Assembly (NCBI GenBank): GCA_012267605.1
Contig: JAAXGF010000054.1
Span: forward strand, 1-31,044
DNA: 31,044 bases
Direction of reading: 5' to 3'
DNA from: Alphaproteobacteria bacterium
Lineage (GTDB): Bacteria > Pseudomonadota > Alphaproteobacteria > JAAXGF01
In this document: piece after piece, positions 6,950-26,192 of the stretch
Numbering within the stretch: the first letter of the stretch is position 1
Layout of the letters: each line of letters opens with the position of its first letter
Made by a program: the position numbers and the translations under genes
Notes under the pieces: generated by a model
The model's database searches: none
Told to the model about the DNA's origin: nothing
The model's input: only the letters and a program-made list of their open reading frames with translations

Positions 6950-6958
6950 ATTTTCCCC

Positions 6959-7585: not shown

Positions 7586-7593
7586 GCGCTTAA

Positions 7594-8920: not shown

Positions 8921-8941
8921 CGCAAAACGGGATAGAACAAA

Positions 8942-10069
8942 ATGAAAATCGTCTTTCTCGCTCGTTCTCTCGGCCTGGGAGGCGCCGAAAGTCAGCTGGT
9001 GACGTTGGCTGCCGGACTGAAACGGCGCGGGCACAAGGTTTCGGTGTTCATTTTCTATAACGAAAACGCATTTGCGGCAGAGCTTGCGCAAGTGGGCGTA
9101 TCGGTTCGTTCACTGGCCAAAAAGGGTCGTTGGGACGTGTTCCCCTTCTTGCGGCGGCTCTTGCGCGGGTTGCGCCGTGAACGACCGGATATTATTCACG
9201 GCTATCTTCCTGTGCCCAACATTTTGATCGGTATGATGAAGCCGTTCCTGAAGGGTGTGAAGTCAGTATTCGGTGTCCGCGCGTCCAATCTTGAGCTCAA
9301 GAAGTACGATTGGTTGACCCGCCTTTCCTACCGTTTTGAGGCCGATTTCGCGCAGTGGTGTGATTCGATCGTGGCTAATTCGGAAACCGGCCGCGCACGT
9401 GCGGAAAAACTCGGTTTTCCGGTGGAGCGAATGGTCGTCATACCCAATGGCATCGATACGGACAGATTCCGTCCTGATTCGGATGCGCGAGCGCGGATTC
9501 GCGCCGAAATTGGGGTGGGAGATGGCACACCAGTTGTGGGACTCGTCGCCCGTCTCGATCCGATGAAGGACCATCCAAATTTTCTGCATGCGGCGGCGGA
9601 ATTTTGTAAACGCGTTCCAAACGTAAAATTTGTTTGTGTTGGCGATGGTTTCCCCGCCTATCGGGAATATTTAGAAAAACTTTCTATTCGGCTTGGTTTG
9701 GTAAAACCAATTGTGTGGATGGGAAGGCGCGAAGACGTCGCCGCTATCTTCAACGGATTTGATGTCGCAACTCTGTCGTCGTTGAGCGAGGGATTTCCTA
9801 ATTGCTTAGCTGAAGCTATGGCCTGCGGCGTGCCCTGCGTCACCACAGATGTTGGCGACGCGGCGCGAATTGTTGGCGATACCGGGATCATTGTGCCGCC
9901 CCGGCAGTCCGTCGTGCTGGCCAAAGGCTGGTTCGATATGTTGCGCCGAATACGCGACGAAGGGTCAGGATTGCGAGAGGCTGTGCGTCGTCGCATAGTT
10001 ACGGAATTTAGTCGGGGATCGCTGGTTGTTCGTACTGAACGGCATCTTCGCGAGCTAATTGCAGGTTAG
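8942..10069 (+). CDS. GT4 family glycosyltransferase
   Basis: N-terminal GLGGAE, VIPNGID, VARLDPMKDH, SSLSEGFPNCLAEAMACGVPCVTTDVG (EX7E). Confidence 0.93.
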   Translation: MKIVFLARSLGLGGAESQLVTLAAGLKRRGHKVSVFIFYNENAFAAELAQVGVSVRSLAKKGRWDVFPFLRRLLRGLRRERPDIIHGYLPVPNILIGMMKPFLKGVKSVFGVRASNLELKKYDWLTRLSYRFEADFAQWCDSIVANSETGRARAEKLGFPVERMVVIPNGIDTDRFRPDSDARARIRAEIGVGDGTPVVGLVARLDPMKDHPNFLHAAAEFCKRVPNVKFVCVGDGFPAYREYLEKLSIRLGLVKPIVWMGRREDVAAIFNGFDVATLSSLSEGFPNCLAEAMACGVPCVTTDVGDAARIVGDTGIIVPPRQSVVLAKGWFDMLRRIRDEGSGLREAVRRRIVTEFSRGSLVVRTERHLRELIAG

Positions 10070-10109
10070 ATCCGTCAATGGACGTTCGGGTCAAGCGTTA
10101 AGGCCAATC

Positions 10110-12047
10110 ATGTGTGGTATCGCCGGATTTGTCGATCGTACCGCTACGTGGAACGCGGAAGAAGGCGCCAGCCTGGCCCGAGGCATGGCGTCGACCCTGA
10201 TTTCGCGCGGGCCCGACGACGACGGGGTTTGGGTCGATACGTCTTCTGGAGTCGCGTTGGGGCAGCGGCGGCTAGCGATTGTCGATCTTTCGCCGGCTGG
10301 GCATCAGCCGATGGTTTCCGGAAACGGGCGCTATGTCATCACATACAATGGTGAAGTCTATAACTTCGACCAAATTCGCGACGAACTTACCCGGTTCGGC
10401 GCAACGTTCCGTGGCCATTCCGACACTGAAGTTGTCCTTGAGGCATGTGCGGCGTGGGGCATCGCCGATGCCGTGGCTCGGCTCATCGGTATGTTCGCCT
10501 TCGCACTCTGGGACCGGCAATTACGCACCCTGACACTATGCCGTGACCGTATCGGCATCAAACCGCTTTATTGGGGATGCCTAGGTGAACTGTTTCTGTT
10601 TGGCTCGGAACTCAAATCGTTGCGTGCGCATCCTGGCTGGGTACCCGAAATTGATCGGGACGCTTTGGCAAGTTTCTTCCGATACAACTATTTACCCAGT
10701 CCCCATACGATTTACAGAGGGGTGCGAAAACTTGAGCCTGGGTGTGTTTTGATTCTGAGTGAGGGCGGCGAGCCGACCATCCGTACTTACTGGCAGCTTG
10801 AATCAACGGCCCTCGCCGCACGCCGTAAACATGCCGCCGCCGACGACCCGGTGGAGGCTCTCGACAATCTGCTCCGCGATGCGGTCAAACGTCGAATGAG
10901 GGCGGATGTACCATTGGGTGCGTTTCTGTCTGGCGGTATCGACTCGTCGACTGTCGTGGCACTCATGCAGGCACAATGCGATCGGCCGGTGCGCAGCTTT
11001 ACCATAGGGTTTCAAGAGGAGGATCACGACGAGGCCGTGTATGCGAAGGCAGTGGCCAATCATTTGGGAACTGATCATACGGAACTCTACGTCGAGCCGT
11101 CCCACGCGCGCGATCTGATCCCGAGAATGGCGGATTACTACGACGAGCCATTCGCCGACGCTTCCCAACTGCCGACGATGCTTTTATGTGAACTGACCCG
11201 GCGACACGTTACCGTCGCACTGTCGGGAGACGGCGGCGACGAAGTTTTTGGCGGCTACACCCGATATTTTTGGGCTGATGGCGTTTGGCGTCATACCCGA
11301 TGGTTGCCTCCGGGTTTGCGCCGCGCGCTGACCCGTATGCTGCGAATTATACCTCCCGAGGGGTGGGATCGTTTGTTCGCCCTCGCGCCAAGTTCGATCC
11401 GGCCGGTCCGTGCGGGCGCTAAAATGCAAAAACTCGCCAATCTCGTCGCGCTCGACTCGAGCAGCGGGTTCTATCGCCAACTATTGACCACATGGGAAGC
11501 CCCTGAGTCCCTGGTGCTGGGTGCCCGCGAACCACAGGGGCCTCCATGGGATGAATCGTTTGGTTGCGAGTTCGCCAATTTCACAGACCGCATGCGTATG
11601 ATTGATATGTTGACTTATTTGCCAGAGAACATTTTGACAAAGGTTGACCGAGCCAGTATGGCGTTCAGCCTCGAGGCGCGGGTTCCGCTTCTCGATCACC
11701 GTGTCATCGCATTCGCTTGGGGGCTTGAGCCAAATCTGTTGTATCAGCGTCGCCGGCCGAAATGGCTGTTGCGTCAAGTATTGGACCGATACCTTCCGAG
11801 CCGACTCGTCGATCGTCCAAAAATGGGTTTCGGTGTTCCCATCGCGGCGTGGCTTCGTGGTCCATTGCGTGACTGGGCAGATGCGTTGTTGTCTGAGCGG
11901 CGGCTGGCGGAAGGTGGATTCTTGGATGCTGGTTTAGTTCGTGCTCGGTGGCGTGAACAGGTCTCGGGACGGCGCGACTGGCAATTCCAATTGTGGAGCG
12001 TACTGATGTTCGAGTCATGGCGGGACCGATGGTTTGCATCTGGCTGA
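10110..12047 (+). CDS. asnB: Asparagine synthase (glutamine-hydrolysing)-like amidotransferase, glycan-associated
   Basis: Ntn start MCGIAG at 10110, RGPD, RRLAIVDLS, RDRIGIKPLY, PP-loop SGGIDSS, LSGDGGDE, KVDRASMA, RPKMGF. Confidence 0.93.
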   Translation: MCGIAGFVDRTATWNAEEGASLARGMASTLISRGPDDDGVWVDTSSGVALGQRRLAIVDLSPAGHQPMVSGNGRYVITYNGEVYNFDQIRDELTRFGATFRGHSDTEVVLEACAAWGIADAVARLIGMFAFALWDRQLRTLTLCRDRIGIKPLYWGCLGELFLFGSELKSLRAHPGWVPEIDRDALASFFRYNYLPSPHTIYRGVRKLEPGCVLILSEGGEPTIRTYWQLESTALAARRKHAAADDPVEALDNLLRDAVKRRMRADVPLGAFLSGGIDSSTVVALMQAQCDRPVRSFTIGFQEEDHDEAVYAKAVANHLGTDHTELYVEPSHARDLIPRMADYYDEPFADASQLPTMLLCELTRRHVTVALSGDGGDEVFGGYTRYFWADGVWRHTRWLPPGLRRALTRMLRIIPPEGWDRLFALAPSSIRPVRAGAKMQKLANLVALDSSSGFYRQLLTTWEAPESLVLGAREPQGPPWDESFGCEFANFTDRMRMIDMLTYLPENILTKVDRASMAFSLEARVPLLDHRVIAFAWGLEPNLLYQRRRPKWLLRQVLDRYLPSRLVDRPKMGFGVPIAAWLRGPLRDWADALLSERRLAEGGFLDAGLVRARWREQVSGRRDWQFQLWSVLMFESWRDRWFASG

Positions 12048-12120
12048 CCGATCGCCGTGGCGCACGCGCCGCGCCGATGTCGCCTACCGCCGCTCGGTCG
12101 ATCACGTTCCGCGCGTTTCA

Positions 12121-13278
12121 ATGAAGCTATGTTATCTTTCGAATTCGACGCTGATTTCGGACAGCGCCAACGCCGTGCACGTGATGAAGATGTGTCAGGC
12201 TTTTGCCGAAAACGGTCACGATGTTACGCTTCATGCACTTGAAGGTGAGGGCGACGTTGATGAAGTCTTCGACTACTACGGCGTGACCACAGCGTTTCCC
12301 ATCCATCGCCACAATATGGGTAGCGATGGTGCGACGAATGCGCTGTGGAGAATGCGCGCATTACTACCATTTCTCCGGGTTGGCGGCTTGCCGACAGTTG
12401 TCTTTGCACGCCGACAGCTCGCACCCATAATATCCCGCACTCCCAGCGATCTGATCTACGCTCGCAGCCTCTATTGGCTGTACGGCGTTCGCGCCACAAT
12501 TCCGTTTATTTATGAATCCCATCAGCCACCTCTTAACGCTCTCGACCGATATTTTGAGCGCGCGATATTCAACCGCCCAGGGTTTCGAGGTCTGACCGTC
12601 ATTTCCCAGAAACTGAAGCAAATCTACGTCGCGCAGTATCCCGGGCTCGCAGATCGAATTCGTGTCGCCCACGACGCAGCCGACGATCCTGGGGATGCCC
12701 CCGACGCGGAGGGAACGATTCACTCCGACGCCGGCAAGATTCGTGTCGGCTACGTCGGCCACCTTTACAAGGGAAGGGGTATCGACCTGATGCTCCGGCT
12801 GGCCAAATCATTTCCTGCGACTGAGTTTCATTTTGTCGGCGGCCGTACAATCGATGTTGAAAGATTTCGAGCAAAAAACGTTCCGCCCAACACGGTGATT
12901 CATGGACACGTACCCCATGGTGAACTCAAGCGCCTATTTCCGCTTTTTGACGTCGTGCTTGCGCCTTATGAGAAGTCGGTGGCCGTGGCGGGCGACGCCG
13001 GCGAAACGGCAGCGTTCATGTCGCCGTTGAAAATCTTTGAATACATGTCCTGGTCCAAGGCAATTTTGTGCTCGGACTTGCCTGTGCTTCGGGAAGTACT
13101 CACCGATGACGTCAACGCGATCCTTATTCCGCCGGATAATTTTGGGGCTTGGCATGATGCGTTGGCGCACCTGATTCGCGAACCGGAAACACGGCTAGAT
13201 CTGGGTCGGGCCGCGCGTCGGGATTTCGTCGCGCAACATACCTGGCGGCGGCGAGCGCAGTTCGTTCTCGAGCTCTGA
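12121..13278 (+). CDS. GT4 family glycosyltransferase
   Basis: MKLCYLS...SANAVHVMKMCQAF, GYVGHLYKGRG, SPLKIFEYM...SDLPVLRE. Start moved to 12121. Confidence 0.9.
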   Translation: MKLCYLSNSTLISDSANAVHVMKMCQAFAENGHDVTLHALEGEGDVDEVFDYYGVTTAFPIHRHNMGSDGATNALWRMRALLPFLRVGGLPTVVFARRQLAPIISRTPSDLIYARSLYWLYGVRATIPFIYESHQPPLNALDRYFERAIFNRPGFRGLTVISQKLKQIYVAQYPGLADRIRVAHDAADDPGDAPDAEGTIHSDAGKIRVGYVGHLYKGRGIDLMLRLAKSFPATEFHFVGGRTIDVERFRAKNVPPNTVIHGHVPHGELKRLFPLFDVVLAPYEKSVAVAGDAGETAAFMSPLKIFEYMSWSKAILCSDLPVLREVLTDDVNAILIPPDNFGAWHDALAHLIREPETRLDLGRAARRDFVAQHTWRRRAQFVLEL

Positions 13279-13281
13279 CAA

Positions 13282-14232
13282 ATGTATCCACACCCTCCAA
13301 GTTACGCCAATGGCGAGCGGGTGTCCGAAGTAGGTCTGGTTTTGGTTTACCATGGGGTGTTTCGAGATGTGCCGGCTGAGCTCGCCGGTGCAGTACACAA
13401 TGTTACACCGCGGAGTTTGGGGCGTCAGCTTGACTGGCTGAACAGCCATTTCAAAATAGTACCGCTCGACGCGATGTTCGACGGTTGCTCTCCACGCGGT
13501 AAGGTGGCGATTACGTTCGACGATGGCTACAAGTCGGTATTCACCGAAGCCGCGCCGCTGCTCTTTCGACGAGGAATTCCGTTTACCGTCTTCATTAATG
13601 GGGGAATCCTCAAGAAGGGAATTTTTTGGCGCGACAAGATACGCTGGTTGATTAACAGCCAACGTGTCGAATCGTTTCTTAGCTTTCGTGCGCAGCTGTG
13701 GCCCGGCGAGCCTGAAATTTCGGGGGCAAATTTTTATCGTGGATCCAAGACTCCAGAAGTCAATTCGCGGATCCTGGACGGACAAATCGATGATTACATT
13801 GGTGCCCAAGGTCTTGGCGCCGAGGTCAAGAAGTTGTCGCGCTTTGTCGCAGGTGAAGAGGACCTTATTGATCATCCTCTCGTTACGTACGGTAACCACA
13901 CGCTCAATCACTATGTGCTTTCCTCGTTGCCTGTGGTGGAACAGGCGACCGAAATTGCTGGGAACGACGACGTCTTGCAACATCTCGGTTTGCCATGCTC
14001 GGCGATCTTTGCGATCCCTTTCGGCGATGCCAGGGATACGCCTCGCGGCTTGGCAACATACCTCAGGTCTCAGGGCTACAACGGCATGCTGTTCAGCCGC
14101 AATCGCTTCAATGTCGGCGATCAACTGCCGTTTGCCTGTGAGCGTTTCATGCCCTCCGACGGTTGGACGGACTTTCACCGAAACATGCTGCGTATCCACT
14201 GGAAATGCCGGCGCTCGCCGACGTCGGACTAG
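13282..14232 (+). CDS. Polysaccharide deacetylase (CE4/NodB family)
   Basis: LVYH, ITFDDGY, GNHTLNH (HxxxH), AIPFG. Confidence 0.88.
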   Translation: MYPHPPSYANGERVSEVGLVLVYHGVFRDVPAELAGAVHNVTPRSLGRQLDWLNSHFKIVPLDAMFDGCSPRGKVAITFDDGYKSVFTEAAPLLFRRGIPFTVFINGGILKKGIFWRDKIRWLINSQRVESFLSFRAQLWPGEPEISGANFYRGSKTPEVNSRILDGQIDDYIGAQGLGAEVKKLSRFVAGEEDLIDHPLVTYGNHTLNHYVLSSLPVVEQATEIAGNDDVLQHLGLPCSAIFAIPFGDARDTPRGLATYLRSQGYNGMLFSRNRFNVGDQLPFACERFMPSDGWTDFHRNMLRIHWKCRRSPTSD

Positions 14233-14345: not shown

Positions 14346-14711
14346 ATGATTAAATTGTCTCGTCCCCTCAAGCTGCTTGTTTTTTTGTTCATGCTGATCG
14401 GTGGTCTATTGGACGCGGTCGGATTTGCTCAGGCGCAATCGCCGGAATGTGTGGTACGCGAGGGCGACGGTAGTGTCGTTGTGCTGGTTTGCCCGCCGAG
14501 CCTCGATGCTGAGGCATGGCAAGTTGCCGGTCAACGGGCGTGCGATGGTAAAACGCTTTGCAATGCATGGGTTTGGGTAGATCCCGTCAAGGCCCCCGAA
14601 AAGGCGCCGAAGCGAAATGAGGATCTGACCCACGTTCAGGTCGCTGACGCGGTCGCGGTGTGGATCAACGATTCGCAATACCTGATGCTTATGCGGGCGG
14701 TAAAAAAATAG
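14346..14711 (+). CDS. Small secreted hypothetical protein with four Cys
   Basis: Signal peptide (LKLLVFLFMLIGGLL...FAQA) followed by a mature domain of about 90 aa with 4 Cys and several Trp. Start could be 14307. Confidence 0.65.
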   Translation: MIKLSRPLKLLVFLFMLIGGLLDAVGFAQAQSPECVVREGDGSVVVLVCPPSLDAEAWQVAGQRACDGKTLCNAWVWVDPVKAPEKAPKRNEDLTHVQVADAVAVWINDSQYLMLMRAVKK

Positions 14712-14754
14712 CGTGTCTCCCCGGTCGGTCTACCGCCACGGCAAATTTCGATAA

Positions 14755-15225
14755 CTATTTCGCTTTCCACTCGCCAGCCATCCGACCAGCCTCGGTAAGC
14801 TGCTCAGGGGTCATGCTTGCGGCCAACAGGTCGCGTTGAATGCCGGCGAATGCTGAGCCTTGTCCAGCGGCCAAGCTGTACCACATGTGGGCTCTGATAT
14901 AGTCCTGGGCGGCGCCGTCGCCGTTTCGGTACAATAGCGCCAGATTTTGTTGGGCATCAGGATGGCCTTGCTCGGTCGATCGCAGGTACCACTTCGCCGC
15001 TTCCGCCGATTCCTTCGTCACCCCCTGGCCATTCTGATACATGACTCCAAGGTAGAATTGGGCCCTGGCGTCGCCTTGCTCGGCAAGCGCCCCGAACTCA
15101 CGAAGGGCAGTTTCGTGGTCACGGTTACGGAAAGCTTTGTAGGCTCCCTCGAAATCGGCTCTGAGCGGTGTAGCGAAAGTGAAGATCAACATAATCACCA
15201 CGATCATTCGCAGTCGTATATGCAT
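14755..15225 (-). CDS. Sel1-repeat (SLR) secreted protein
   Basis: Signal peptide, then AEQGDARAQFYLGVMYQNGQGV, EQGHPDAQQNLALLYRNGDGA, AHMWYSLAA. Confidence 0.9.
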   Translation of the reverse strand: MHIRLRMIVVIMLIFTFATPLRADFEGAYKAFRNRDHETALREFGALAEQGDARAQFYLGVMYQNGQGVTKESAEAAKWYLRSTEQGHPDAQQNLALLYRNGDGAAQDYIRAHMWYSLAAGQGSAFAGIQRDLLAASMTPEQLTEAGRMAGEWKAK

Positions 15226-15369
15226 AGCGTTTCCGATCTCGTTCAGCCAATGCCCAATCTTGCTCGTAGTTTAGTTCAGCGTTACGGATTTAACGATCGT
15301 TGTCCAATTCTAGAGCCACGTAGTGCGACAATTCTTTGACCTACCCAATCGCTTGCAAATGGTATCAGG

Positions 15370-15391
15370 CACGTTAGATGTACCTAACGTG
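15370..15391. promoter_or_regulatory. Perfect 8-bp inverted repeat upstream of lptF (candidate operator)
   Basis: CACGTTAG-ATGTAC-CTAACGTG, 44 nt before the lptF ATG, in the divergent Sel1/lptF gap. Confidence 0.4.
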
Positions 15392-15435
15392 GCCGCCCCT
15401 GTGGCGGCTGGAGTTCTTGTATCAGGCTGTTATCA

Positions 15436-16617
15436 ATGCGGATCATAGACCGGTACATCATAAAATCGATCCTTGTTTATGGGTTCACCATGACATGTAT
15501 CGCAGTGTTCGCGCTTCTCCTGGAACGGTTGTTGCGACTGCTCAACCTGGCTGCGAATCCCGATAAAGTAATGATTTACGTATCCCAAATGCTGGTAACC
15601 CTGATCCCACATTATTTAGCGATTGCCCTGCCTGCGGCGTTTTTTTTGGCTGTACTATTGACCTATGGCCGGCTGCAAAGGAACAACGAAATTGCCGTGC
15701 TGACCGGGTCGGGTATTGGCCTTCAACGTCTGATGGCACCAGTGGTCGTATTCGGAATCGTGCTTATGATTATCGCTGCGTATGTCGCCAGTTATTTACA
15801 GCCCCTAGGGCGCTACGCTTACCGGGCGCTCGTCCACACCGTCGAACATGCTTCGTTGAGTGCTGCACTTCGCGAAGGCACTTTTGTTCACGCTGGGGGA
15901 CTAACGTTCTTCGCGGATCGCTTCGCGGTCGACAGCGGATTGTTATCGCACGTGTTCGTTCACGAAATTTCCGGCGATATCTCCTTCGCGACGACAGCGG
16001 CAAAGGGTGTTTTGTTTGGTGCCTCTGATGAATCGGGATCAACCCTTTTACTGGGCGATGGTCTGCGGGTGGGAGTGGCTGCTGACGGTGGCGTTACCGA
16101 TCACGTTCAATTCACCAAATTCAGATGGTCCATCGAACCCGATGGCCAAACTACGTTTCGTTCTCGAGGCAAAGACGAACGGGAACTTACCGTACCAGAA
16201 CTCTGGCACGCGATTGTCGATCCACCGGGCGTGGTTACTTCCGATCGGGTCAGAGCCGAATTTCATTCACGCCTGGCTCGATCCTTGGCGATCGTAATTT
16301 TGCCACTGCTCGCGATCCCGTTGGCAATGTACGGGGGCCGCGGCCGTCAATCTCCGGGCGTTATTAGTGGCGTGATCATTCTCGTTGTATTCGAGGAGGC
16401 ATTGCGATTTGGCGAATCACTCACCGCCTTCGGTGAAGTGTCGCCATGGTTTGGCATATGGCTACCGGTCGGCGTGTTGGCGGTGCTCGGGGCCTATTTA
16501 TCCTTTGAAACTGTTTTTACCGTGCGCAATCAACCGTTCGATCGCGGCTGGTGGGAATTGGGCCGATTTATTTCCGGTATCGGTAAATCTGTTAAGGCGA
16601 TGCGTGGTACGTCATGA
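15436..16617 (+). CDS. LptF/LptG-family permease (LptF-like paralog)
   Basis: IIDRYI, 3 TM + periplasmic jellyroll region + 3 TM, RLQRNNEIAVL.SGI, LREGTF, AEFHSRLA, PLA. Confidence 0.88.
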   Translation: MRIIDRYIIKSILVYGFTMTCIAVFALLLERLLRLLNLAANPDKVMIYVSQMLVTLIPHYLAIALPAAFFLAVLLTYGRLQRNNEIAVLTGSGIGLQRLMAPVVVFGIVLMIIAAYVASYLQPLGRYAYRALVHTVEHASLSAALREGTFVHAGGLTFFADRFAVDSGLLSHVFVHEISGDISFATTAAKGVLFGASDESGSTLLLGDGLRVGVAADGGVTDHVQFTKFRWSIEPDGQTTFRSRGKDERELTVPELWHAIVDPPGVVTSDRVRAEFHSRLARSLAIVILPLLAIPLAMYGGRGRQSPGVISGVIILVVFEEALRFGESLTAFGEVSPWFGIWLPVGVLAVLGAYLSFETVFTVRNQPFDRGWWELGRFISGIGKSVKAMRGTS

Positions 16618-17702
16618 TCGGCGTAATTGGTCGGTACATTACGGGACTATTCATGGCGAGGTTCTGGGGGCTTCTCTTCGGCCTTACGATATTGGTCATA
16701 ATTTTGGATTTGCTTTCCCACGGCGACGAAATCCTGGCGATTAGCGACTCACTGTTTTCGGATTCCTTTCGGTACATTGGTTTGAGAACTCCAGAGATAG
16801 CGTCGCGACTCTTTCCCTTCGCTGTACTACTGGCAACATTGACGACTCTCATTGGATTGGTGCGAACCAGCGAAATGGCTGCGCTGTTGGCCGCTGGTGT
16901 ATCCCAGATCCGATTGATGTCCGCCTTCGTTCCGAGTGCGCTGTTGATTGCCTTGCTGCAGCTTTGTGTCGAGGATCAGCTTCTCCCGCTGACATCAGGT
17001 GAATTGCGTGCGTGGGGCGTCGGCGACTATGGCCTTGGCACGGACCAGGACGAACAAGGACAAACGTGGTTGAGAGAGGGGAGGGACGTTGTCCGGATCG
17101 GTCTTCGCGATGATAGCGGACGGTATCAAGGTATCACCATATTTCGCCGTGACGATAAGGGAAACTTGATCGAGAGGATAGACGCCCGTTCGGCGGTGCT
17201 GTTGGGCGAGAATTGGCATCTGGAAGACATCAAATGGTGGCAGTTCGAAACGCGTGAACTGACAACTGTTGAACGCATGGAATGGCAAACTGAGCTTCGT
17301 CCGCAAACCTTGGCACTGCTCTCCACTCATCCCCGCGAATTGTCATTTCGTTCGCTTCGGCGAATGGTTGATACGTCCGGGTTCGGGAGTCGGCCACGCT
17401 ATATGTATGATGTCTGGTTGCAAAAACGGATTTCGCGCCCAGCCGCTACGGTGCTCATGATTCTCATGGCGATCCCGCTCGTTCAATTTTTCCAAAATCG
17501 TATGAGCGGCGGTTGGTTGCCCGCTTCGGGGGTCGCCCTCGGATTTTTCTATTGGATTTTTGATGGCTTACTTTTGACCATCGGCGAGGCGGGGCTAATG
17601 CCCCCTCCTCTTGCTGCCTGGACCCCCATATTTGTGTTCACGGCCCTGGCCCTGTATTTATCGATACGGTGGGATGCGAGTCGCGCCACCCAGAAGAAAT
17701 GA
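16614..17702 (+). CDS. LptF/LptG-family permease (LptG-like paralog)
   Basis: IGRYI, LVRTSEMAALLAAGVS, same 3+3 TM topology, AAWTP C-terminal motif; ATGA overlap with the previous gene. Confidence 0.88.
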   Translation: MIGVIGRYITGLFMARFWGLLFGLTILVIILDLLSHGDEILAISDSLFSDSFRYIGLRTPEIASRLFPFAVLLATLTTLIGLVRTSEMAALLAAGVSQIRLMSAFVPSALLIALLQLCVEDQLLPLTSGELRAWGVGDYGLGTDQDEQGQTWLREGRDVVRIGLRDDSGRYQGITIFRRDDKGNLIERIDARSAVLLGENWHLEDIKWWQFETRELTTVERMEWQTELRPQTLALLSTHPRELSFRSLRRMVDTSGFGSRPRYMYDVWLQKRISRPAATVLMILMAIPLVQFFQNRMSGGWLPASGVALGFFYWIFDGLLLTIGEAGLMPPPLAAWTPIFVFTALALYLSIRWDASRATQKK

Positions 17703-18655
17703 AGATCGGGCTCGTTAGCAATACTCTTAGCAAACGTAATAGGTCCGGAATTCCGCGTAGGATGAGGAAGCTCCTTTCCCACCCCCATGTCATTCACAAG
17801 CAGATTGCGGGGGTTAGTGAACTGGGAACGGCGCTCGAGGAGTTCGCTTCAGAAGCAGTGGATGTCGTTGCCATCAACGGTGGGGACGGTACGATCTCCG
17901 CGACTTTAACGACAATGTTCGAAAGTTCAATTTTTCGTCGGCCACCGGCACTCGCTGTGTTGCCTGGGGGTATGACGAATATGATTGCCGGCGATGTTGG
18001 CATCGCCCGGACGATTGGACGGGCTGCGACGCGGCTTGCCAATTTGGCTGGTGAAAACACTTGCAATATTCCATGCACGGCGCGGGCAGTGATCCGCGTC
18101 GAGAATGGTGCACCGGATAAACCAGTCTACGGTATGTTCTTCGGTACTGCCGCGATTGTCCGCGCTATCGATCTATGCCGGCGCGCATTCGAAGAAAAAG
18201 GAATGCGATCCTCACCAGCGGTGGCGCTAACGCTGGCCTATGTATTGGGGCGCCGGTTCTTTAGGGGACGCGGCGACGACGACGTATTCCATGGCGACGA
18301 GATGGAAATTCAATTTGATGGTCAGGATCGAGATGATGGTGCGCAGCTCGTCGCGCTAGTTACAACATTGGACCGATTGGTTCTTGGTTCACGACCTTTC
18401 TGGGGTCTCGAAAACGGTAGTTTGCGATTTACTCGGATAGGCTATCCGCCCCATCGACTGATCTGGTTCGCCCGCCGCGTACTTTTCGGTGGGCCCTTGC
18501 GCGATCTCCCCGAACGACACTATCGCAGTCGCAATACGGATAGTCTGACGCTGAACATGGTATGTCCTTTCACCCTTGACGGCGAAATTTTCCAGCCAGG
18601 CGAAGGGAAGCCCGTAGTCATTAGTACTGCAGGAACGGTTCGGTTCGTGAAATGA
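17699..18655 (+). CDS. Diacylglycerol/sphingosine kinase-family lipid kinase (candidate ceramide kinase)
   Basis: NGGDGT, LPGGMTNMIA, LDGE. Start at 17699 overlaps the lptG stop (ATGA). Confidence 0.85.
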   Translation: MKIGLVSNTLSKRNRSGIPRRMRKLLSHPHVIHKQIAGVSELGTALEEFASEAVDVVAINGGDGTISATLTTMFESSIFRRPPALAVLPGGMTNMIAGDVGIARTIGRAATRLANLAGENTCNIPCTARAVIRVENGAPDKPVYGMFFGTAAIVRAIDLCRRAFEEKGMRSSPAVALTLAYVLGRRFFRGRGDDDVFHGDEMEIQFDGQDRDDGAQLVALVTTLDRLVLGSRPFWGLENGSLRFTRIGYPPHRLIWFARRVLFGGPLRDLPERHYRSRNTDSLTLNMVCPFTLDGEIFQPGEGKPVVISTAGTVRFVK

Positions 18656-19611
18656 CGAGCCGGGAGGGCGAATTGAGATTGGGCCAACTTGTACGCAAGG
18701 AGCTACGGCAACATGTCTCGCCCGAGGCGAGGGCGGTTTCAGCGGCGCTAAAAAGCCGTCACAATCCGCTTGGTATCTTGTTCTACGGATCGTGCTTTCG
18801 CGACGGTGGCGCCGGAGGCGTGATGGATTTTTGCGTCCTGACCGATTCCTATCGAGGTTTCTACAGTCGTTTCCTCCCGGCGCTATTCAACACACTGTTA
18901 CCTCCCAATGTTTTTTACTTTGAAGTACCCTACGAAGGGGGAATAATTCGCGCGAAATACGCGGTTGTGTCGTTACACGACCTAGCACGGTTTACCTCTC
19001 CAGATTGCTTCGAGGCGTATTTTTGGGGACGCCTTTCTCAACCATGTGCGCTTGTCTATGCGCGCGACCGGAAAGTCCGGAATGCGGTGGCACAAGCTGT
19101 AGCTAGCGCCGCCCAAAAAATGGTTCGAGAATCTCTGCCGTTAATGGCTTCCCGTTTCACCGCCCGCGAATTGTGGTCGCGTGCGCTTCACGAAAGCTAT
19201 CGTACGGAAATGCGCGCCGAGGCTCTCGACCGGTCTCTTGAACTCTACACCGCTGCCGCCGAACGCTATGATGACGTAGCGGAGGCAATTATTTCGGGTA
19301 GCCATCTCGGCCAACTTGTCCGACCTCGCGGCACAGCTACTTATTTTGTCCGGAATTCATCCTTGGCGCAAAGATGTGTGGCGGGGACGCGTTGGCATTT
19401 CAGGCGAATTGTTGGCAGAATTTTCCACGTACTGCGGCTCACTAAGGCGGCACATACATTCCACGGTGGACTGGAATATATTCTGTGGAAAATTGAGCGT
19501 CACACGGGCAAAAGCCTGCGTTCCAATTCATGGCAGAGACGCCACCCGATTTTAGCGGCCCCATTACTAATCTGGAAACTAAAGTATTGGAAACGAAATA
19601 GGCGCGCTTAA
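18652..19611 (+). CDS. Tam41/Mmp37-like nucleotidyltransferase (candidate lipid-phosphate cytidylyltransferase)
   Basis: FYGS...MDF nucleotidyltransferase motif; PNVFY, KYAVVS and YFWGRLSQP resemble the Tam41 motifs KYGVIS and YLAGRLQKP. Recognised by eye. Confidence 0.65.
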   Translation: MTSREGELRLGQLVRKELRQHVSPEARAVSAALKSRHNPLGILFYGSCFRDGGAGGVMDFCVLTDSYRGFYSRFLPALFNTLLPPNVFYFEVPYEGGIIRAKYAVVSLHDLARFTSPDCFEAYFWGRLSQPCALVYARDRKVRNAVAQAVASAAQKMVRESLPLMASRFTARELWSRALHESYRTEMRAEALDRSLELYTAAAERYDDVAEAIISGSHLGQLVRPRGTATYFVRNSSLAQRCVAGTRWHFRRIVGRIFHVLRLTKAAHTFHGGLEYILWKIERHTGKSLRSNSWQRRHPILAAPLLIWKLKYWKRNRRA

Positions 19612-19662
19612 AGGTCTGTGTTAGACCACTGTGTGATTACGTACCGGCTGCGCCTACTTAAA

Positions 19663-20898
19663 TTAATCGCCAACGTGACTCGCGGTCCGGGGGTTTGAGC
19701 CGCGCGCGTTGTATTCCCGGATGCTCTCGGCCACGTATTCAAAAGCACCGCATATTGTCTCGATCTGGTCCTGGCTGTGGGCAGCCGAAACACTGCAGCG
19801 TAATAACGAGGATGTATCAGGCGTGCCTGGCGGAATCGCGAGGTTCACATAAACTCCAGCATCCAAGATTCGGTTCCAAGCGAGGACCGCTTCCTCCCGC
19901 TGGGGTAGCATCACCGCAATCACAGGGCTCGGAGCGGCCGCTAAAGTCAAATCAATCGCCGCCAACCGATCGTAAAATGCGTGCACGTTTCGCCATAAGC
20001 TATCGCGTAATTCGGGCTCCCTGCGAATCCGGCGCAACGCCGTCAACACAGACGCGACAACCGATGGCGACAAAGATGCAGTAAACATGTAGGGACGGCT
20101 GGCAAGTCTCAGATAATCAAACTTGGGATGATTGGAGGCGCAAAAACCACCCATCGAACCCAGACTCTTGCTAAACGTTCCGACGATGAAATCAACGTCC
20201 GCCGATACGCCGGCTTGCTCGACAACACCTTGGCCTGACTGGCCGTAGATGCCAACCGAATGGGCTTCGTCCACATACAGATATGCGTTGTGCTTACGCT
20301 TTACCTCGGCGAATTCAGCGAGCGGAGCAATATCGCCCAACATGCTGTACAGTCCTTCGACAATAATAAGCTTGTTGGAGTCCGACCTCTTCAATCGCTG
20401 CAGCCGTTTATCAAGATCGGCTGGTGAGTTGTGCCGGAAACGAATTACCGTCGCGCCACTCATTCGGCATCCGTCATAGATGCATGCGTGGCAGTGGGCG
20501 TCCATCAGAATGTAGTCGCCAGGGCCCGCGAGCGCAGAGATCATTCCAAGATTGGCCTGGTATCCTGTCGGAAATACGAGCGTGCTCTTGCATCCGAAGA
20601 ACGAAGCCAGTTCCGTTTCAAGCTCGCGGTGATTGGCGTAAGTTCCATTCGCAATTCGCGAACCCGTCGTTCCCGTGCCTTGCCGCGCCAACGCGTTCTG
20701 AGCGGCGCTGATCGACTCAGGATCAAATGTCAGTCCCAGATAATTATTGGATCCCGCGAGAATGACTTTCTTCCCGCGGATAATCGCCTCCGTCGCCGAA
20801 CGAACCTCGTCCATGCACACACCAAACGGATCACGGCCCATGGCGGCGATCTGTTCATGTTGGGCGGGAAGAGGGGCGATTTTGTCAAAGAGATCCAT
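19663..20898 (-). CDS. spt: Serine palmitoyltransferase (alpha-oxoamine synthase family, PLP)
   Basis: GSNNYLGL, GTTGSRIANGT, TGYQANLG, DEAH, GTFSKSLG (PLP lysine). Adjacent to ACP, SDR and acyl-AMP ligase with no biotin genes, which favours SPT over BioF. Start moved to 20898 (MDLFDK). Confidence 0.85.
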   Translation of the reverse strand: MDLFDKIAPLPAQHEQIAAMGRDPFGVCMDEVRSATEAIIRGKKVILAGSNNYLGLTFDPESISAAQNALARQGTGTTGSRIANGTYANHRELETELASFFGCKSTLVFPTGYQANLGMISALAGPGDYILMDAHCHACIYDGCRMSGATVIRFRHNSPADLDKRLQRLKRSDSNKLIIVEGLYSMLGDIAPLAEFAEVKRKHNAYLYVDEAHSVGIYGQSGQGVVEQAGVSADVDFIVGTFSKSLGSMGGFCASNHPKFDYLRLASRPYMFTASLSPSVVASVLTALRRIRREPELRDSLWRNVHAFYDRLAAIDLTLAAAPSPVIAVMLPQREEAVLAWNRILDAGVYVNLAIPPGTPDTSSLLRCSVSAAHSQDQIETICGAFEYVAESIREYNARGSNPRTASHVGD

Positions 20899-20902
20899 GC
20901 TT

Positions 20903-21154
20903 TTACGCTCCCCGGGCTTGCTTATGAATCGTCTGGACCAAGTCCCCAATCGTGCGGATGTCGGACAACATGTTCATCGGAATGGAGATACGGTAATCGT
21001 CCTCCACTTCCATGATCAAATCAAGTACTGCCACGGAATCAATTTCCAGATCTCCGGCGATATCTGTATCCCTCGACAAAGTAACGTTCCTAACGTTAAA
21101 CGGCTCAAGCAATGTGCACGTCTTGTGAAATACCAAATCGTCCTCGTCGCGCAT
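20903..21154 (-). CDS. Dedicated acyl carrier protein
   Basis: 83 aa, acidic, DLEIDSVAVLDLIMEVED with phosphopantetheine Ser (DSV); 4 nt before spt. Confidence 0.9.
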   Translation of the reverse strand: MRDEDDLVFHKTCTLLEPFNVRNVTLSRDTDIAGDLEIDSVAVLDLIMEVEDDYRISIPMNMLSDIRTIGDLVQTIHKQARGA

Positions 21155-21292: not shown

Positions 21293-22249
21293 TCAAAGCA
21301 AGTTGTTTTCTAAGTACCAGTTGATTGAGCGCTCAAAACCCCCGTAGATAGACACATTAGGACGCCAATTGGTACAACGCGTCAAGTCATTTTCGCGGCA
21401 CACCCAATCTTTATAAAAAATTTCGCGAACTTTCCCCCTTGTGATCGTCGGCGTAGACCTCGTAATACCACAAATCGCTTGATTGGCAAGTGCTACCACA
21501 CTCATGACGACACGGGGCACTGGTACACACGTTACATGGCGGCCAAATACACGGCCACCGGCATTTGCGATGTCCAACCAACTGTATCCGGCCTCACATT
21601 CGTCGCGAATCTCGAAGGTTTTCCCATCACTGGCCGACGACAAAATCAGGGAGATCACGGCTTCACAAAGATCCGATACAAAGATTAGCGATAAACGGTT
21701 GCCGCGCCGGCTAGGAACCGGGAGCAAGCCGCCGCGAAGCAGTTTAAACAGCTTTAATGTGGCGGTGTCACGCGGGCCGTATACGGCCGGCGGTCGGACG
21801 ATCGTCCAACGCAAGTTACCGCTATGTTCCGCTAGCGCCAGCTCGGCACCGCGTTTACTTTCGGCATATGCCGAGATCTCGGGACTTCGGGCTGCCACCG
21901 ATGACATTAGGATGAATCGGGGTGGCAGGGACCGGGCCACGCAAATCTGCGCCAGATGCGCAGTTCCCGCGCGATTTCCACGATCGAATTCCTTCGAAGT
22001 GGTGGCGTGAATATTGCCCGCACAGTGAACGACAGTGTCCGCACCGTCGACGAGACGGGTGAGACTAGCCCTATGTTCGAGCGAACCTATTACTACGTCG
22101 ACTCCCTGGGCTATTAGATCCGCGTCGTTTCGGCGGCACAGGGCGCAAACGTCAGCACCAGCGGAAATCAAGTGTTCCACTAAGTGTCGGCCAATAAAAC
22201 CCTTAGCACCGGTAACCGCGACGCGTCCACCCGCCAAATCAGATTTCAT
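21293..22249 (-). CDS. NAD-dependent epimerase/dehydratase-type SDR (candidate ceramide reductase, CerR-like)
   Basis: TGAKGFIG, HCAG, SSVAA, YAESK (YxxxK), RPPAVYGP; lies between the acyl ligase and acp. Confidence 0.82.
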   Translation of the reverse strand: MKSDLAGGRVAVTGAKGFIGRHLVEHLISAGADVCALCRRNDADLIAQGVDVVIGSLEHRASLTRLVDGADTVVHCAGNIHATTSKEFDRGNRAGTAHLAQICVARSLPPRFILMSSVAARSPEISAYAESKRGAELALAEHSGNLRWTIVRPPAVYGPRDTATLKLFKLLRGGLLPVPSRRGNRLSLIFVSDLCEAVISLILSSASDGKTFEIRDECEAGYSWLDIANAGGRVFGRHVTCVPVPRVVMSVVALANQAICGITRSTPTITRGKVREIFYKDWVCRENDLTRCTNWRPNVSIYGGFERSINWYLENNLL

Positions 22250-22341: not shown

Positions 22342-24075
22342 CTAGGTCGCCGGCGTTGAATAGACGCCTGACAGGAATTGTGCCTTGGCCGCGGACCGGC
22401 TAATTTTTCCCGAAGAGGTCACGGGTATGCTCCGGGGCTTGGTGAGCACAACTGTGCAATCGACGCCGGCCATTTTGCGAACCACTGAACCGACGTCATC
22501 CTGTAGCTTCGCCCGAGCCTCGTCCGTACTGGCTCGGCACTGGACGATGGTCACGATTCTTTCCGCGCCATCCGCGCCGTCAACGGAAAATGCGGCCACG
22601 TCGCCGCTTCGCATACCCGGCAAGCGTTCCACCGCCCACTCGATATCTTGCGGCCAAATATTGCGGCCATTGCAGATAATGAGGTCCTTGCTGCGGCCAG
22701 TAATAACCAGTGAACCATCTATTGTGTACCCCAGGTCTCCCGTCTCCAACCACCCGTCGTCCGACAATACCCGGGAGGTGGCTTCCGAATCCTGAAAATA
22801 CCCGGCCATCACGCTCGGTCCTCGCACCATGACCCTGCCGACTCGCCTGTCCGCTAGTTCGCTCCCCGTAGAGTCGACAATGCGCAATTCATGATTGGGC
22901 AGGGGCTTACCACACAATACAAATGATCTGGTATGTTCGCTGGATGCTTCAGGAGCTGCCGGTAAGGCTTTCTTGGTCCGCGCGAACTCGTTCAAGTCGA
23001 CACGGTCAATCGAAATTCCCTCGTCCAACGGCGCGAAACTGACGGCAAGCGTCGACTCTGCCAATCCATAGCTCGGCAAGAACGCCGATCGGCGAAATTC
23101 CATCGCGCCGAATCTTTCGGCAAATCGATCCGCGGCGTTCGCCCGCACCATATCACCGCCAATTCCGGCGACACGCCATGACGATAGATCGAACTCCGCC
23201 GGCGCACCATTATTGACCGCGCGTCGGACGCAAAGCTCGTATCCGAAAGAAGGACTAAATGCCAAGGTGCCGCGATATTTGGAAATCATTTCGAGCCAAG
23301 CGAGCGGCCGGCGGGCAAAATCACTAGCGGTAATGTAATCGGTCGATAGTTGGGCCAAAAGGGGCGCAATACAAAACCCGACCAAGCCCATGTCATGAAA
23401 CAATGGAAGCCATGACGTACAGCGATCACCCTCGGTAACCTGTAGGCCATGCGAAATGATGGCGTGAGCATTTTTTGTTACCGCCTCTTGCGACACGGCA
23501 ACTCCTTTGGGCGCGCTCGTACTTCCGGAGGAGTACTGGATATAACATGAGTCGCCACGGCCAGCCGGTCGCAGATGGTCAAATTCGGGCAGGGCGTAGA
23601 TTGCTGCTGGTGTTCCGGTGAATAGCGGCTCGGAACCCGACATGGCTTCAAGAAGAACCTCTTGGAGTTCTTCAGGTGCCACTGCCACCGATGGTTCCGC
23701 CGATTGAATCATCGCGCGCACATGGCGGACGTATGCCTCTCGCCCGCCCAGGTTCATCGGCAGGGGCATCGGAACGGGGATTAGGCTGGCGTACTGGCAA
23801 GCAAAAAAAAGTATGTGAAAATCGACTGACGTATCGATCAACAAAATCATGCGATCACCGCGAGGCAGGCCCAGCGACAAGAGCTTTCCAGCCACGGATA
23901 TCGCCCGTTCGCGCAGTGTGGCGTACGGCAAACTCGCGAGTAGCTCGCCCCTCACAGAAAAGTAATTGAACCCGGTTTCGCCCTTCGCCGCGTACTCAAG
24001 GCCGTCGACCAATGTGTCGAACGGGCCGGGAGATAATGCCAGTGAAGCACTGATCGCAGGTGTTGGACATTGCAT
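22342..24075 (-). CDS. Fatty acyl-AMP ligase / acyl-ACP synthetase
   Basis: YIQYSSGSTSAPKGV, SWLPLFHDMGL, SYGLAESTLAV, WLETGDLG, GRSKDLII, TSSGKISR. Start moved to 24075 (MQCPT). Confidence 0.9.
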   Translation of the reverse strand: MQCPTPAISASLALSPGPFDTLVDGLEYAAKGETGFNYFSVRGELLASLPYATLRERAISVAGKLLSLGLPRGDRMILLIDTSVDFHILFFACQYASLIPVPMPLPMNLGGREAYVRHVRAMIQSAEPSVAVAPEELQEVLLEAMSGSEPLFTGTPAAIYALPEFDHLRPAGRGDSCYIQYSSGSTSAPKGVAVSQEAVTKNAHAIISHGLQVTEGDRCTSWLPLFHDMGLVGFCIAPLLAQLSTDYITASDFARRPLAWLEMISKYRGTLAFSPSFGYELCVRRAVNNGAPAEFDLSSWRVAGIGGDMVRANAADRFAERFGAMEFRRSAFLPSYGLAESTLAVSFAPLDEGISIDRVDLNEFARTKKALPAAPEASSEHTRSFVLCGKPLPNHELRIVDSTGSELADRRVGRVMVRGPSVMAGYFQDSEATSRVLSDDGWLETGDLGYTIDGSLVITGRSKDLIICNGRNIWPQDIEWAVERLPGMRSGDVAAFSVDGADGAERIVTIVQCRASTDEARAKLQDDVGSVVRKMAGVDCTVVLTKPRSIPVTSSGKISRSAAKAQFLSGVYSTPAT

Positions 24076-24464
24076 AGGAATTACCGCCAACCCGCGTGAT
24101 GGTCTCTTACAGTTTTTGTGCCCATGCGAGCCACAACCAACGGACGACAACCCTCGTGCCAAAATTGAACCATTTCACAACACGTCACATACGGTAAATG
24201 ATCCACCCATGAAACGCAAGTTCGCGGCACGACACCTTTTGATCTCCAGGCTTCCTAGATTTGCTCATGGTTAATGCCTTTGAATCGGCGTTCGAAAAGG
24301 TACACCGGAAAAATCCGAGTCGTCCAAACAACGATCAATGACAGGGCAATTCCAAACATGGCCGTAGCAAGATTCCAATCCGACAAATGGTGGATAGGAC
24401 GCTACTATATCTCTCTCAACGGAAAACATCGCCGTGATTGGATATCAGAAACAAACCCATCCGA

Positions 24465-26192
24465 TCATCGAACAGATGTGCGTGCCGCGCGGTCGGTAAC
24501 CGGCCATGCATGTCCGTTGTCCAGGGCGTAGAGACGATCAGCGACACCAACCCAGGCCTTGGTATGAGTTACTGCTAAAATTGTTAGTGAGTTCGACAAA
24601 GCACGCACATTGTGCACAACGGACATCTCGGTTTCCGGGTCGAGGGCGCTCGTGACCTCATCGAGGATCAATAGACGTGGCTGATGAACCAAGGCGCGTG
24701 CCAGCGCGATACGCTGTCGCTGCCCACCCGACACTTTTAGTCCGCGTTCGCCAACCTGCCCATGGATTCCATCTTTCATGGCCTCGACAAACGGCCACGC
24801 TCCCGCCAACTCAAGCGCTCGCTTGACTTCACTGATGGCGATTGATTCATCACCGAGCCTGACGTTTGCGAGAACTGTGTCGTGAAATAGGATGACCTCC
24901 TGGGGCACGTACCCGACCATGCGGCGCCAAGCGTTCATGTCGATATGATCGAACGGGATGCCGTCGATGAGAATATGTCCGGAGTCGGGCCGATACAAAC
25001 CAAGCAAAATGTCGCTTAACGTGCTCTTGCCGCCGCCCGATTCCCCGGTGATGACGGTGAGTTTTCCTGCCGGTATTTCAAGCGAAAGGTTTTCCAGTAC
25101 TTTGTTCGAGCCAAACGAAAGAGCGACGTTTTCAATAACGCAGCCCTCGTTCAAAGTCGGTGTCAAACCGCTTTTGACAGGTTCCGCCTCCTGAATGGAT
25201 TGCTCGATCAGCCGATGGATCGACCAATACGCACTCTCGACAATCATCGCTTTTTGATAATATTGCTGAATTTTCCCAATGGTCGAGACGGTGCTGTGCA
25301 GTAAAAGGCCCATGATGAGCAACTCGGAGATCGGCAACGCCCATTCGCTCACCGCGAGATAGAATCCTATACCGAGACACAACACCAACAGTGGCTCGCG
25401 CAGATTGCGCAAGACATGGGCGCTGATCACCTGTTTGCGAAGCGCTCGGCGAAGGGATTCGATTTTGCCGCCCATAATGGCGGCGAAATGGCCTTGTCGC
25501 GCCATCGCTTTCAACACCTTGATGCCGACTAGGGCGTCGCTCAGATCGGCGATCAGTTCACTCGTACGTTTGGTTTGGCGGCGCCCCGCTCGCTTTGCCA
25601 CGTGAACTAGCCAGTTCAGTACTATGGTGATGACGCAACCGATAAGAACCGCGGCCACTGCCAGTCTCCAGGAAACCAGGAAAGCGACGATGACGTAGAC
25701 GATGCACTGGATAAAGCTGGCGACAGTGAACGCAGCCAACAGGTAGGCATGTCCGGCGCGGCTGGCTTCGATACTCACGGCATTCGCGATGGTACCAACG
25801 GGCAGGCGGGTGAAGTACTCCCATTTTGCCGCGAGTAGCGTATCGATCAATCTGGAACGGAGCCTTGTGGCAACCTCGGCCACCGTGTAGCCGACGTGTT
25901 TCATCGCTAATATTAGAAGCCCGGATTTGATGAAGATGCCGGTGACCACAATCGTTACCAGGCTGCCGAGATCGGGTGTCAGTCCAAGATCGCTCAGAAA
26001 ATCGAGGATGTAGCGGTTGAGCGAAGATGTATCACCCGCTGCGCTGGCATCACTCGCGCTGGCCAACTCGACCAATGGCAACAACGTGGCCAAGCCCACA
26101 CCCTCGGCAAGACCGGCGATTAACAGGCAGACCAGTACAGTCCACCGACTGGTTCCCTTTGAACCGAAAAAAATGCCGAGTACGCCAAACAT
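24465..26192 (-). CDS. ABC exporter, fused TMD-NBD (MsbA-like)
   Basis: Multi-TM N-terminal half; Walker A GESGGGKS, Q-loop YVPQE, signature VSGGQRQRIALARAL, Walker B ILDEVTSALD, H-loop VTH. Confidence 0.92.
   Translation of the reverse strand: MFGVLGIFFGSKGTSRWTVLVCLLIAGLAEGVGLATLLPLVELASASDASAAGDTSSLNRYILDFLSDLGLTPDLGSLVTIVVTGIFIKSGLLILAMKHVGYTVAEVATRLRSRLIDTLLAAKWEYFTRLPVGTIANAVSIEASRAGHAYLLAAFTVASFIQCIVYVIVAFLVSWRLAVAAVLIGCVITIVLNWLVHVAKRAGRRQTKRTSELIADLSDALVGIKVLKAMARQGHFAAIMGGKIESLRRALRKQVISAHVLRNLREPLLVLCLGIGFYLAVSEWALPISELLIMGLLLHSTVSTIGKIQQYYQKAMIVESAYWSIHRLIEQSIQEAEPVKSGLTPTLNEGCVIENVALSFGSNKVLENLSLEIPAGKLTVITGESGGGKSTLSDILLGLYRPDSGHILIDGIPFDHIDMNAWRRMVGYVPQEVILFHDTVLANVRLGDESIAISEVKRALELAGAWPFVEAMKDGIHGQVGERGLKVSGGQRQRIALARALVHQPRLLILDEVTSALDPETEMSVVHNVRALSNSLTILAVTHTKAWVGVADRLYALDNGHAWPVTDRAARTSVR

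Follow-up and report, generated by a model that had tools for sequence, protein, structure and literature searches.

Which lipid is acted on, and by what chemistry, by the kinase and the Tam41-like protein whose genes lie side by side at 17699-19611 of a 31,044-nucleotide stretch of alphaproteobacterial DNA (the window, to whose whole length all coordinates below refer)? The stretch belongs to a 3.2-Mb metagenome-assembled genome (MAG) of 411 contigs that is 94% complete. It had been proposed that ceramide is here converted to ceramide-1-phosphate (C1P) and then to CDP-ceramide, which would receive its head group from the CDP-alcohol transferase encoded at 26984-28162. Of this original prediction the Tam41 fold, the coupling to a lipid kinase and C1P as product of the first step have stood, whereas the transfer step assigned to 26984-28162 has not. 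The pair is very probably cpgB/cpgC of the anionic sphingolipid pathway, as described in Caulobacter crescentus, whose products, anionic lipids of the outer membrane, are ceramide phosphoglycerate (CPG) and CPG2, which carries a second phosphoglycerate.

The gene pair and its sphingolipid locus

Both genes lie on the forward strand and are real, not chance open reading frames (ORFs), because each protein has hundreds of full-length homologues at 40-95% identity (993 homologues in the case of the kinase). The cpgB-like gene, for a putative ceramide kinase of 318 aa with the DAGK/YegS fold, occupies 17699-18655, in a frame that is open from 17669 and has its ATG at 17699; the cpgC-like gene, for a Tam41-fold nucleotidyltransferase of 319 aa, occupies 18652-19611. 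The kinase ATG overlaps the stop codon of the preceding lptG2-like gene as ATGA, and the ATG at 18652 overlaps the kinase stop codon in the same manner, bearing out the predicted translational coupling of kinase and Tam41-like protein. The lptF-like, lptG-like, kinase and Tam41-like genes form one tightly coupled four-gene operon. The four sequence motifs originally singled out (FYGS, MDF, KYAVVS and WGRLSQP) are all found within the translation of 18652-19611. A scan of 14700-20000 for promoters and terminators gave counts not above those of shuffled sequence, promoters slightly excepted.

The kinase matches Pfam DAGK_cat (2.1e-11, 43.9 bits, over the cut-off), carries the GGDG motif as NGGDGT, and lacks CxxxCxxC, its sole cysteine pair being CNIPC with no third cysteine. 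Biochemical proof of ceramide kinase activity exists for Caulobacter CpgB (CC_1160 / CCNA_01218; Dhakephalkar et al. 2023, PMC10331486), which is distinguished by the presence of GGDG and the absence of the CxxxCxxC motif of eukaryotic CERK (PMC10331486). The window kinase resembles CpgB in both respects, as well as in its DAGK_cat/YegS-type fold, its length of ~318 aa, the lack of a Pfam membrane domain, and the position of its gene directly upstream of cpgC. By analogy with CpgB, we infer that it is a ceramide kinase, and the proposed first step, ceramide to C1P, agrees with the biochemistry of this Caulobacter counterpart (PMC10331486).

In Caulobacter the locus comprises CC_1155/1156 (lptG2/lptF2), CC_1160 (cpgB), CC_1161 (cpgC), CC_1162 (spt), CC_1163 (acpR), CC_1164 (cerR) and CC_1165 (aasR) (PMC11324152). 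The gene order of the window is that of this sphingolipid locus (CC_1155-CC_1165), an ABC exporter and a HIT gene excepted. Upstream of the pair on the forward strand are the first gene of the operon, for an lptF2-like permease (15436-16617; Pfam LptF_LptG 1.2e-63; positional match to CC_1156, PMC11324152), and a gene for an lptG2-like permease (16614-17702; LptF_LptG 1.8e-68) that overlaps both the lptF2 and the kinase genes. Convergent with cpgC, and on the reverse strand, is spt for serine palmitoyltransferase (19663-20949; NCBIfam NF047599, 624 bits against a cut-off of 500). It is accompanied on the same strand by genes for an acpR-like acyl carrier protein (20903-21154; NCBIfam ACP models, down to 2.6e-12), a cerR-like NAD-dependent SDR-type reductase (21293-22249; Pfam Epimerase 4e-22; conserved in position and matching CC_1164 positionally), and an aasR-like fatty acyl-AMP/ACP ligase (22342-24162; NCBIfam NF006624, 761 bits, over the cut-off; also conserved in position).

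Within this spt/acpR/cerR/aasR/lptF2G2 locus the Tam41-like protein has the traits of CpgC (CC_1161 / CCNA_01219): a Tam41/Mmp37-type domain, a length of ~320 aa, and a gene immediately 3' of the ceramide kinase gene and beside spt-acp-cerR-aasR. The corresponding domain, IPR015222 (Tam41/Mmp37), has been reported in CC_1161 and its homologues (PMC11324152); PF09139, the Pfam family for Tam41_Mmp37, found no match at E<=0.01 in the Caulobacter control genome. The two arrangements are not identical. The window pair is joined to the lptF2-lptG2 operon, unlike the Caulobacter pair, which follows cpgA, and the cpgA-like gene of the window is 7 kb off, beyond the spt operon. Caulobacter and Hyphomonas CpgC themselves share only 30% identity.

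The arrangement in which lptF2-lptG2-kinase-Tam41-like faces spt-acp-cerR-aasR recurs in six Geminicoccaceae/alphaproteobacterial MAG loci and in further relatives (L001-L016). In all 15 related loci whose upstream flank is covered, the kinase gene is directly 5' of the Tam41-like gene, and it adjoins spt in most related loci; lptF2 is kept upstream of the kinase in all of them, and the acpR-like gene adjoins spt there too. A broader view was obtained with three queries against 301 genomes of the same class, evenly drawn, in which related genomes are non-independent, so that the counts are descriptive. A CpgC-type profile (A1, built from 32 homologues of the Tam41-like protein) matched 31 of the 301 at E<=1e-10, and the Spt model NF047603 matched 41 at E<=1e-100. 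Spt is present in 30 of the 31 CpgC-type genomes, as compared with 41/301 overall, and the spt and cpgC genes are often adjacent.

One protein, P0482 (662 aa), has a CpgB-type kinase domain (residues 16-332) joined to a CpgC-type domain (353-660), its kinase domain showing 27% identity to the window kinase over the whole length. The joined protein lends weak Rosetta-stone support to the kinase-CpgC link, because it may be a natural fusion or may come from a frameshift across the usual ATGA overlap. The CpgC-type match of another genome (G158) likewise falls within a 675-aa open frame.

Fold and conserved residues of the Tam41-like protein

Assignment of the second protein to the Tam41 type was evaluated by family, profile and structure searches. 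Pfam Tam41_Mmp37 (PF09139) is matched at 5.5e-05 with 23.1 bits (22.6 bits in the genome scan), and is also matched by 13 of 32 close homologues at E<=0.01, at best 5.6e-09, with no other family recurring. Against the PDB, profile A1 recovered Schizosaccharomyces pombe Tam41 (6ig2) at E 0.002, in an alignment that pairs KYAV with KYGV, (G/A)R-x2-Q-P with GRFQKP, and SYRTE-x-R with SYLGDIR.

An AlphaFold2 model made from A1 has a mean predicted local distance difference test (pLDDT) score of 90.1 and a predicted template-modelling (pTM) score of 0.89. The top five Foldseek matches of this model in the PDB were all Tam41 (6ig4, 6ig2 and 7ecd; E 1.6e-08 to 9.8e-07, probability 1.00), and the next were aminoglycoside nucleotidyltransferases at E ~5e-03. 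In VIA alignments to Tam41, model residues ~1-270, spanning the nucleotidyltransferase (NTase) and winged-helix domains, gave 229-231 aligned residues. Z was 20.0 for 7ecd (Firmicutes Tam41 with CTP-Mg; root-mean-square deviation 2.9 A over 229 aligned residues), and 17.4 and 17.0 for the S. pombe structures 6ig4 and 6ig2. The next fold, ANT(4'), reached Z 10.5 and was aligned over the NTase domain only. The Tam41-like fold that had been predicted from short motifs is thus recovered by both profile and structure searches.

Six residues (G46, S47, D59, K102, Y103 and R127) are invariant in the 32 homologues, and K102/Y103 and R127 map to K109/Y110 and R133 of the CTP site of human TAMM41 (residue list in PMC8935507). 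The mapping also takes in K136, where the family has an invariant Gln, but gives no counterpart for T199 and N208. Of the three NTase acids, Tam41 keeps just one (PMC11646218); D59 is likewise the only invariant Asp of the CpgC-type family in this region. The resemblance to Tam41/TAMM41 extends from the two-domain fold (NTase plus winged helix, Z 17-20) to the YGS...D-F, KY(G/A)V, GR and SY...R motifs, which are kept, and to a C-terminal helical region that is basic. The window protein differs from Tam41 in having 13-15% identity to it, in its sphingolipid, as opposed to glycerolipid, context within a genome that keeps CdsA, and in its expected lipid substrate, which would be C1P and not phosphatidate. 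The Tam41-fold assignment is sound, and formal membership in the Pfam family is borderline. In an exhaustive profile search the CpgC type numbered 1,688 representative clusters. Members of the family occur across Pseudomonadota, and the nearest ESM Atlas clusters of the window protein are all bacterial.

From ceramide-1-phosphate to ceramide phosphoglycerate

Deletion of Caulobacter cpgC leaves ceramide phosphate in place with loss of CPG and CPG2 (PMC9393093). Olea-Ozuna et al. 2024 saw the Tam41 domain in CC_1161 and proposed a ceramide activated with a nucleoside diphosphate (NDP) (PMC11324152), and papers of 2025-2026, including one of May 2026 (PMC13228409), call the mechanism of CpgC unidentified. 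For the window we propose a route of three steps. In the first, the kinase would phosphorylate ceramide to C1P, as shown for the Caulobacter enzyme. In the second, the Tam41-fold protein would use its basic and aromatic C-terminal helices to attach to the inner membrane, hold CTP (or another nucleoside triphosphate) with the Lys-Tyr and Arg conserved in the Tam41 pocket, and transfer the nucleoside monophosphate (NMP) to the phosphate of C1P, giving NDP-ceramide ("CDP-ceramide") and pyrophosphate; this step is drawn from the fold, the conserved residues and the analogy to Tam41, which converts phosphatidate to CDP-diacylglycerol (CDP-DAG). In the third, the hydroxyl of glycerate or phosphoglycerate would displace CMP to form CPG. 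A CpgA-like enzyme would most likely add, later and optionally, a second phosphoglycerate from soluble CDP-glycerate, and the sphingolipid-specific transporter LptF2G2 would then export the anionic lipid (bioRxiv 10.64898/2026.04.12.717747).

Taken as a whole, a cpgB/cpgC pair working through a three-step NDP-ceramide route is reasonably probable. On the modelled fold and pocket, whether the Tam41-like enzyme is the one that makes NDP-ceramide is finely balanced, and the further proposal, that CpgC-type enzymes are CTP:ceramide-1-phosphate cytidylyltransferases with CDP-ceramide as a never-observed lipid intermediate, is offered tentatively, with slightly more doubt than confidence. Cytidylylation of C1P is plausible on the structural model and has in substance already been published (PMC11324152). 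Supply of CDP-DAG does not depend on the Tam41-like enzyme, given that an ordinary CdsA (170.8 bits) is encoded in the genome.

Several observations weigh against this route. The PF09139 score of 23.1 bits is below the 24-bit gathering cut-off, and K136, a CTP-site lysine of human TAMM41, is replaced in the CpgC-type family by an invariant glutamine, Q130, so that handling of the nucleotide or the substrate may differ. Correspondence of the pair to CC_1160/CC_1161 was drawn from synteny, domain content and the published description. In the literature searched, "CDP-ceramide" is absent as a term; an enzyme assay has not been reported for any CpgC, nor has an enzyme been identified that consumes NDP-ceramide, and Caulobacter can make CPG without the only dedicated CDP-alcohol transferase of the locus.

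That transferase was the candidate for head-group transfer in the original prediction. The gene itself is real: 26984-28162 (forward strand) encodes a cpgA-like two-domain CDP-alcohol phosphotransferase that matches PF01066 at 1.8e-10 and has the complete CDP-OH motif D-x2-D-G-x2-A-R-x8-G-x3-D-x3-D, LDTVDGKLARVTLTSSRWGNIYDHGIDL, which is invariant in 30 homologues. The start at 26984 is favoured over an upstream GTG at 26921 because the homologues are ~395 aa long. An AlphaFold2 model (pLDDT 85.5) predicts an N-terminal cytidylyltransferase-like cytosolic domain followed by a CDP-OH domain of six transmembrane helices. Its best folds are the Archaeoglobus fulgidus proteins IPCT-DIPPS (4mnd) and AF2299 (4o6m), with template-modelling scores (TM-scores) of 0.55-0.73, and DIPPS and PIPS are among the fold matches. 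The likeness to AF2299 includes the complete CDP-OH motif and the N-terminal cytidylyltransferase-like domain (TM-score 0.58-0.73). By consensus reading, the N-terminal domain is without the usual G-x-G-x-R nucleotide-binding signature and is probably not catalytic. The fold cannot settle the donor, because the PIP synthases, which also score well, were crystallised as constructs fused to the AF2299 domain.

What is known of Caulobacter suggests a later role for this enzyme. There CpgA (CC_1159 / CCNA_01217) is not required for CPG itself, only for its conversion to CPG2 (PMC9393093, PMC12275187), probably with soluble CDP-glycerate as donor (PMC9393093, PMC12275187), which is made by CpgD, a protein of another fold than the Tam41-like protein (PMC12275187). 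As modelled, the architecture of the window transferase is compatible with such use of CDP-glycerate from CpgD, and in relatives its gene lies, like cpgA, directly upstream of the kinase and cpgC. By analogy, the 26984-28162 product is most likely CpgA-like and responsible for a later, optional addition of a second phosphoglycerate. Its proposed role in taking the head-group step from CDP-ceramide does not agree with the Caulobacter cpgA mutants, which still make CPG.

Nor does the distribution of the two-domain transferase fit that of an enzyme for the first head-group step. Its profile (A2) matched 13 of the 301 genomes at E<=1e-30; all 13 are CpgC-type, leaving 18 of the 31 CpgC-type genomes in which it was not found, as it was not in G003, a genome of the same family that is 98% complete. 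Its occurrence in just 13/31 argues that the transferase is not the obligatory partner of CpgC. If CpgC-type enzymes do make CDP-ceramide, its consumer would, because most CpgC-bearing genomes lack this transferase, be a yet-unassigned protein or a housekeeping CDP-alcohol transferase. The three sets are nested, Spt being widest, then CpgC (with one exception), then the CpgA type, which fits the published order of ceramide synthesis, CpgB/CpgC to CPG, and CpgA to CPG2. Distant paralogues of the two-domain transferase, one or two per genome at E 1e-54 to 1e-67, occur at G046:C13, G048:C11, G123:C63, G224:C19 and G255:C12, ~5-17 kb from cpgA-cpgB-cpgC except for the G123 copy, which is on another contig. 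These are candidates for the enzyme of the first head-group step.

The same absence of a dedicated CDP-alcohol transferase from most of the CpgC-bearing genomes sampled is what would be expected if CpgC were itself the head-group transferase, attaching glycerate or phosphoglycerate to C1P in a single step, with no free NDP-ceramide and perhaps with the help of an activated donor. No enzyme of the NTase fold is known to link a carboxy-sugar acid through a phosphodiester unless a nucleotide takes part. The one-step scheme, which is the original model of Zik et al., accords with the accumulation of ceramide phosphate without CPG upon cpgC deletion (PMC9393093), with the failure of genetics to give a second enzyme between C1P and CPG, and with the cofitness of CC_1161 mutants with gluconeogenic enzymes that supply phosphoglycerate or phosphoenolpyruvate. 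However, the fold is that of an NMP-transferring enzyme in which the Lys-Tyr and Arg of the Tam41 CTP pocket are kept, and direct attachment was judged energetically unfavourable by Olea-Ozuna et al. (PMC11324152). We consider the one-step scheme unlikely.

The replacement of K136 by an invariant Gln hints at altered triphosphate or substrate binding, and after Tam41 the structures closest to the model are O-nucleotidyltransferases such as ANT(4') (Z 10.5), so that the Tam41-fold protein might instead nucleotidylate some other acceptor (candidates being a hydroxyl of ceramide or of CPG, or phosphoglycerate in a second CpgD-like activity) or use a nucleotide other than CTP. This appears distinctly improbable: both domains, not the NTase domain alone, superpose on Tam41 over 229-231 aligned residues, genetics places CpgC directly after C1P, and synthesis of CDP-glycerate in the pathway has already been assigned to CpgD, a protein of different fold (PMC12275187). 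An ordinary glycerolipid module, with a DAG kinase making phosphatidate and a bacterial Tam41 making CDP-DAG, would suit the closest structure, 7ecd, a bacterial Tam41 with CDP-DAG synthase activity (PMC11646218), and the automatic ESM Atlas names, which read "phosphatidate cytidylyltransferase", but was rejected as very improbable on the sphingolipid context and the presence of CdsA: the pair lies within a conserved sphingolipid locus, nearly all of its occurrences are in genomes with Spt (30 of 31), in Caulobacter the kinase acts on ceramide (PMC10331486), and mutation of cpgC there removes the head group of the sphingolipid only (PMC9393093).

Neighbouring genes and significance

Two genes of the window set its spt operon (in the order HIT-ABC-aasR-cerR-acp-spt) apart from the Caulobacter locus. 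Between the HIT gene and aasR is an MsbA/HepA-like half-transporter (24465-26192, reverse strand; Pfam ABC_membrane and ABC_tran, NCBIfam MsbA-type models), a candidate lipid flippase that stands where Caulobacter has the Wzx-like flippase CC_1166 (IPR002797), and which may mean that the sphingolipid is flipped in a different way here. The operon begins with a gene (26240-26821, reverse strand) for a HIT-family protein of 193 aa (Pfam HIT 6.9e-05) with an intact histidine triad, HVHFHVV. It is found at the place of the TagF-like CC_1167, with no HIT counterpart described in Caulobacter. HIT enzymes have nucleotide-phosphate conjugates as substrates, so this one could conceivably help to process a CDP-linked intermediate. 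The ABC exporter and the HIT protein were not found in the Geminicoccaceae loci examined. In one of the Geminicoccaceae MAGs, a Metallophos (calcineurin-like phosphoesterase) gene is directly 5' of lptF2 (L003 5412-6728, forward strand), matching the Caulobacter phosphoesterase CC_1158; the window has none at that place.

Counterparts of other Caulobacter proteins were also sought. No CpgD orthologue was identified in the 94%-complete MAG of 411 contigs, which has 14 NTP_transf_3-like ORFs; of the candidates set aside, one is MurU-like and another is without a PDB relative. In the search for counterparts of CpgD, CC_1153 and bCerS, the families PF01983 and PF13444 were uninformative, neither matching the Caulobacter control. 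A pairing of an NTase with a CDP-OH transferase on contig C407 of the same genome was rejected for the sphingolipid pathway, as it belongs to a hopanoid-type cluster (3190-11908, reverse strand; locus L031 of genome G000). This cluster includes genes for a radical-SAM/DUF3463 (HpnH-like) protein, IspH, an LPG_synthase_TM protein, an HpnA-like epimerase, a small CDP-alcohol transferase, an NTP_transf_3 nucleotidyltransferase and an MMPL transporter, and its NTase and CDP-OH transferase, taken together, point to a hopanoid-associated lipid whose head group is CDP-activated.

The region 5' of the sphingolipid genes in the window (7750-14232, forward strand) encodes a winged-helix (HTH_24/MarR-type) regulator, a NusG-like paralogue, two GT4 glycosyltransferases flanking an asparagine synthase, and then a polysaccharide deacetylase. 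These genes probably make up a module for a surface polysaccharide or glycolipid, controlled by a specialised NusG/RfaH-like antiterminator.

In summary, the window holds nothing conceptually new; what it shows is that an uncultured, distant lineage of Alphaproteobacteria has this module too. The module matters because the anionic sphingolipids CPG and CPG2 allow Caulobacter to survive without lipid A, are its target for colistin and polymyxin, and act as a virulence-provoking factor in the Galleria model, and because, of all the pathway's reactions, only that from C1P to CPG is unsolved. For that reaction the window offers a compact lptF2-lptG2-cpgB-cpgC operon and a high-confidence Tam41-type model, from which D59, K102, Y103, R127 and Q130 are candidate catalytic residues for mutagenesis. 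If CpgC-type enzymes are indeed CTP:ceramide-1-phosphate cytidylyltransferases, their reaction would do for bacterial sphingolipids what the CDP-diacylglycerol branch does in phospholipid synthesis.

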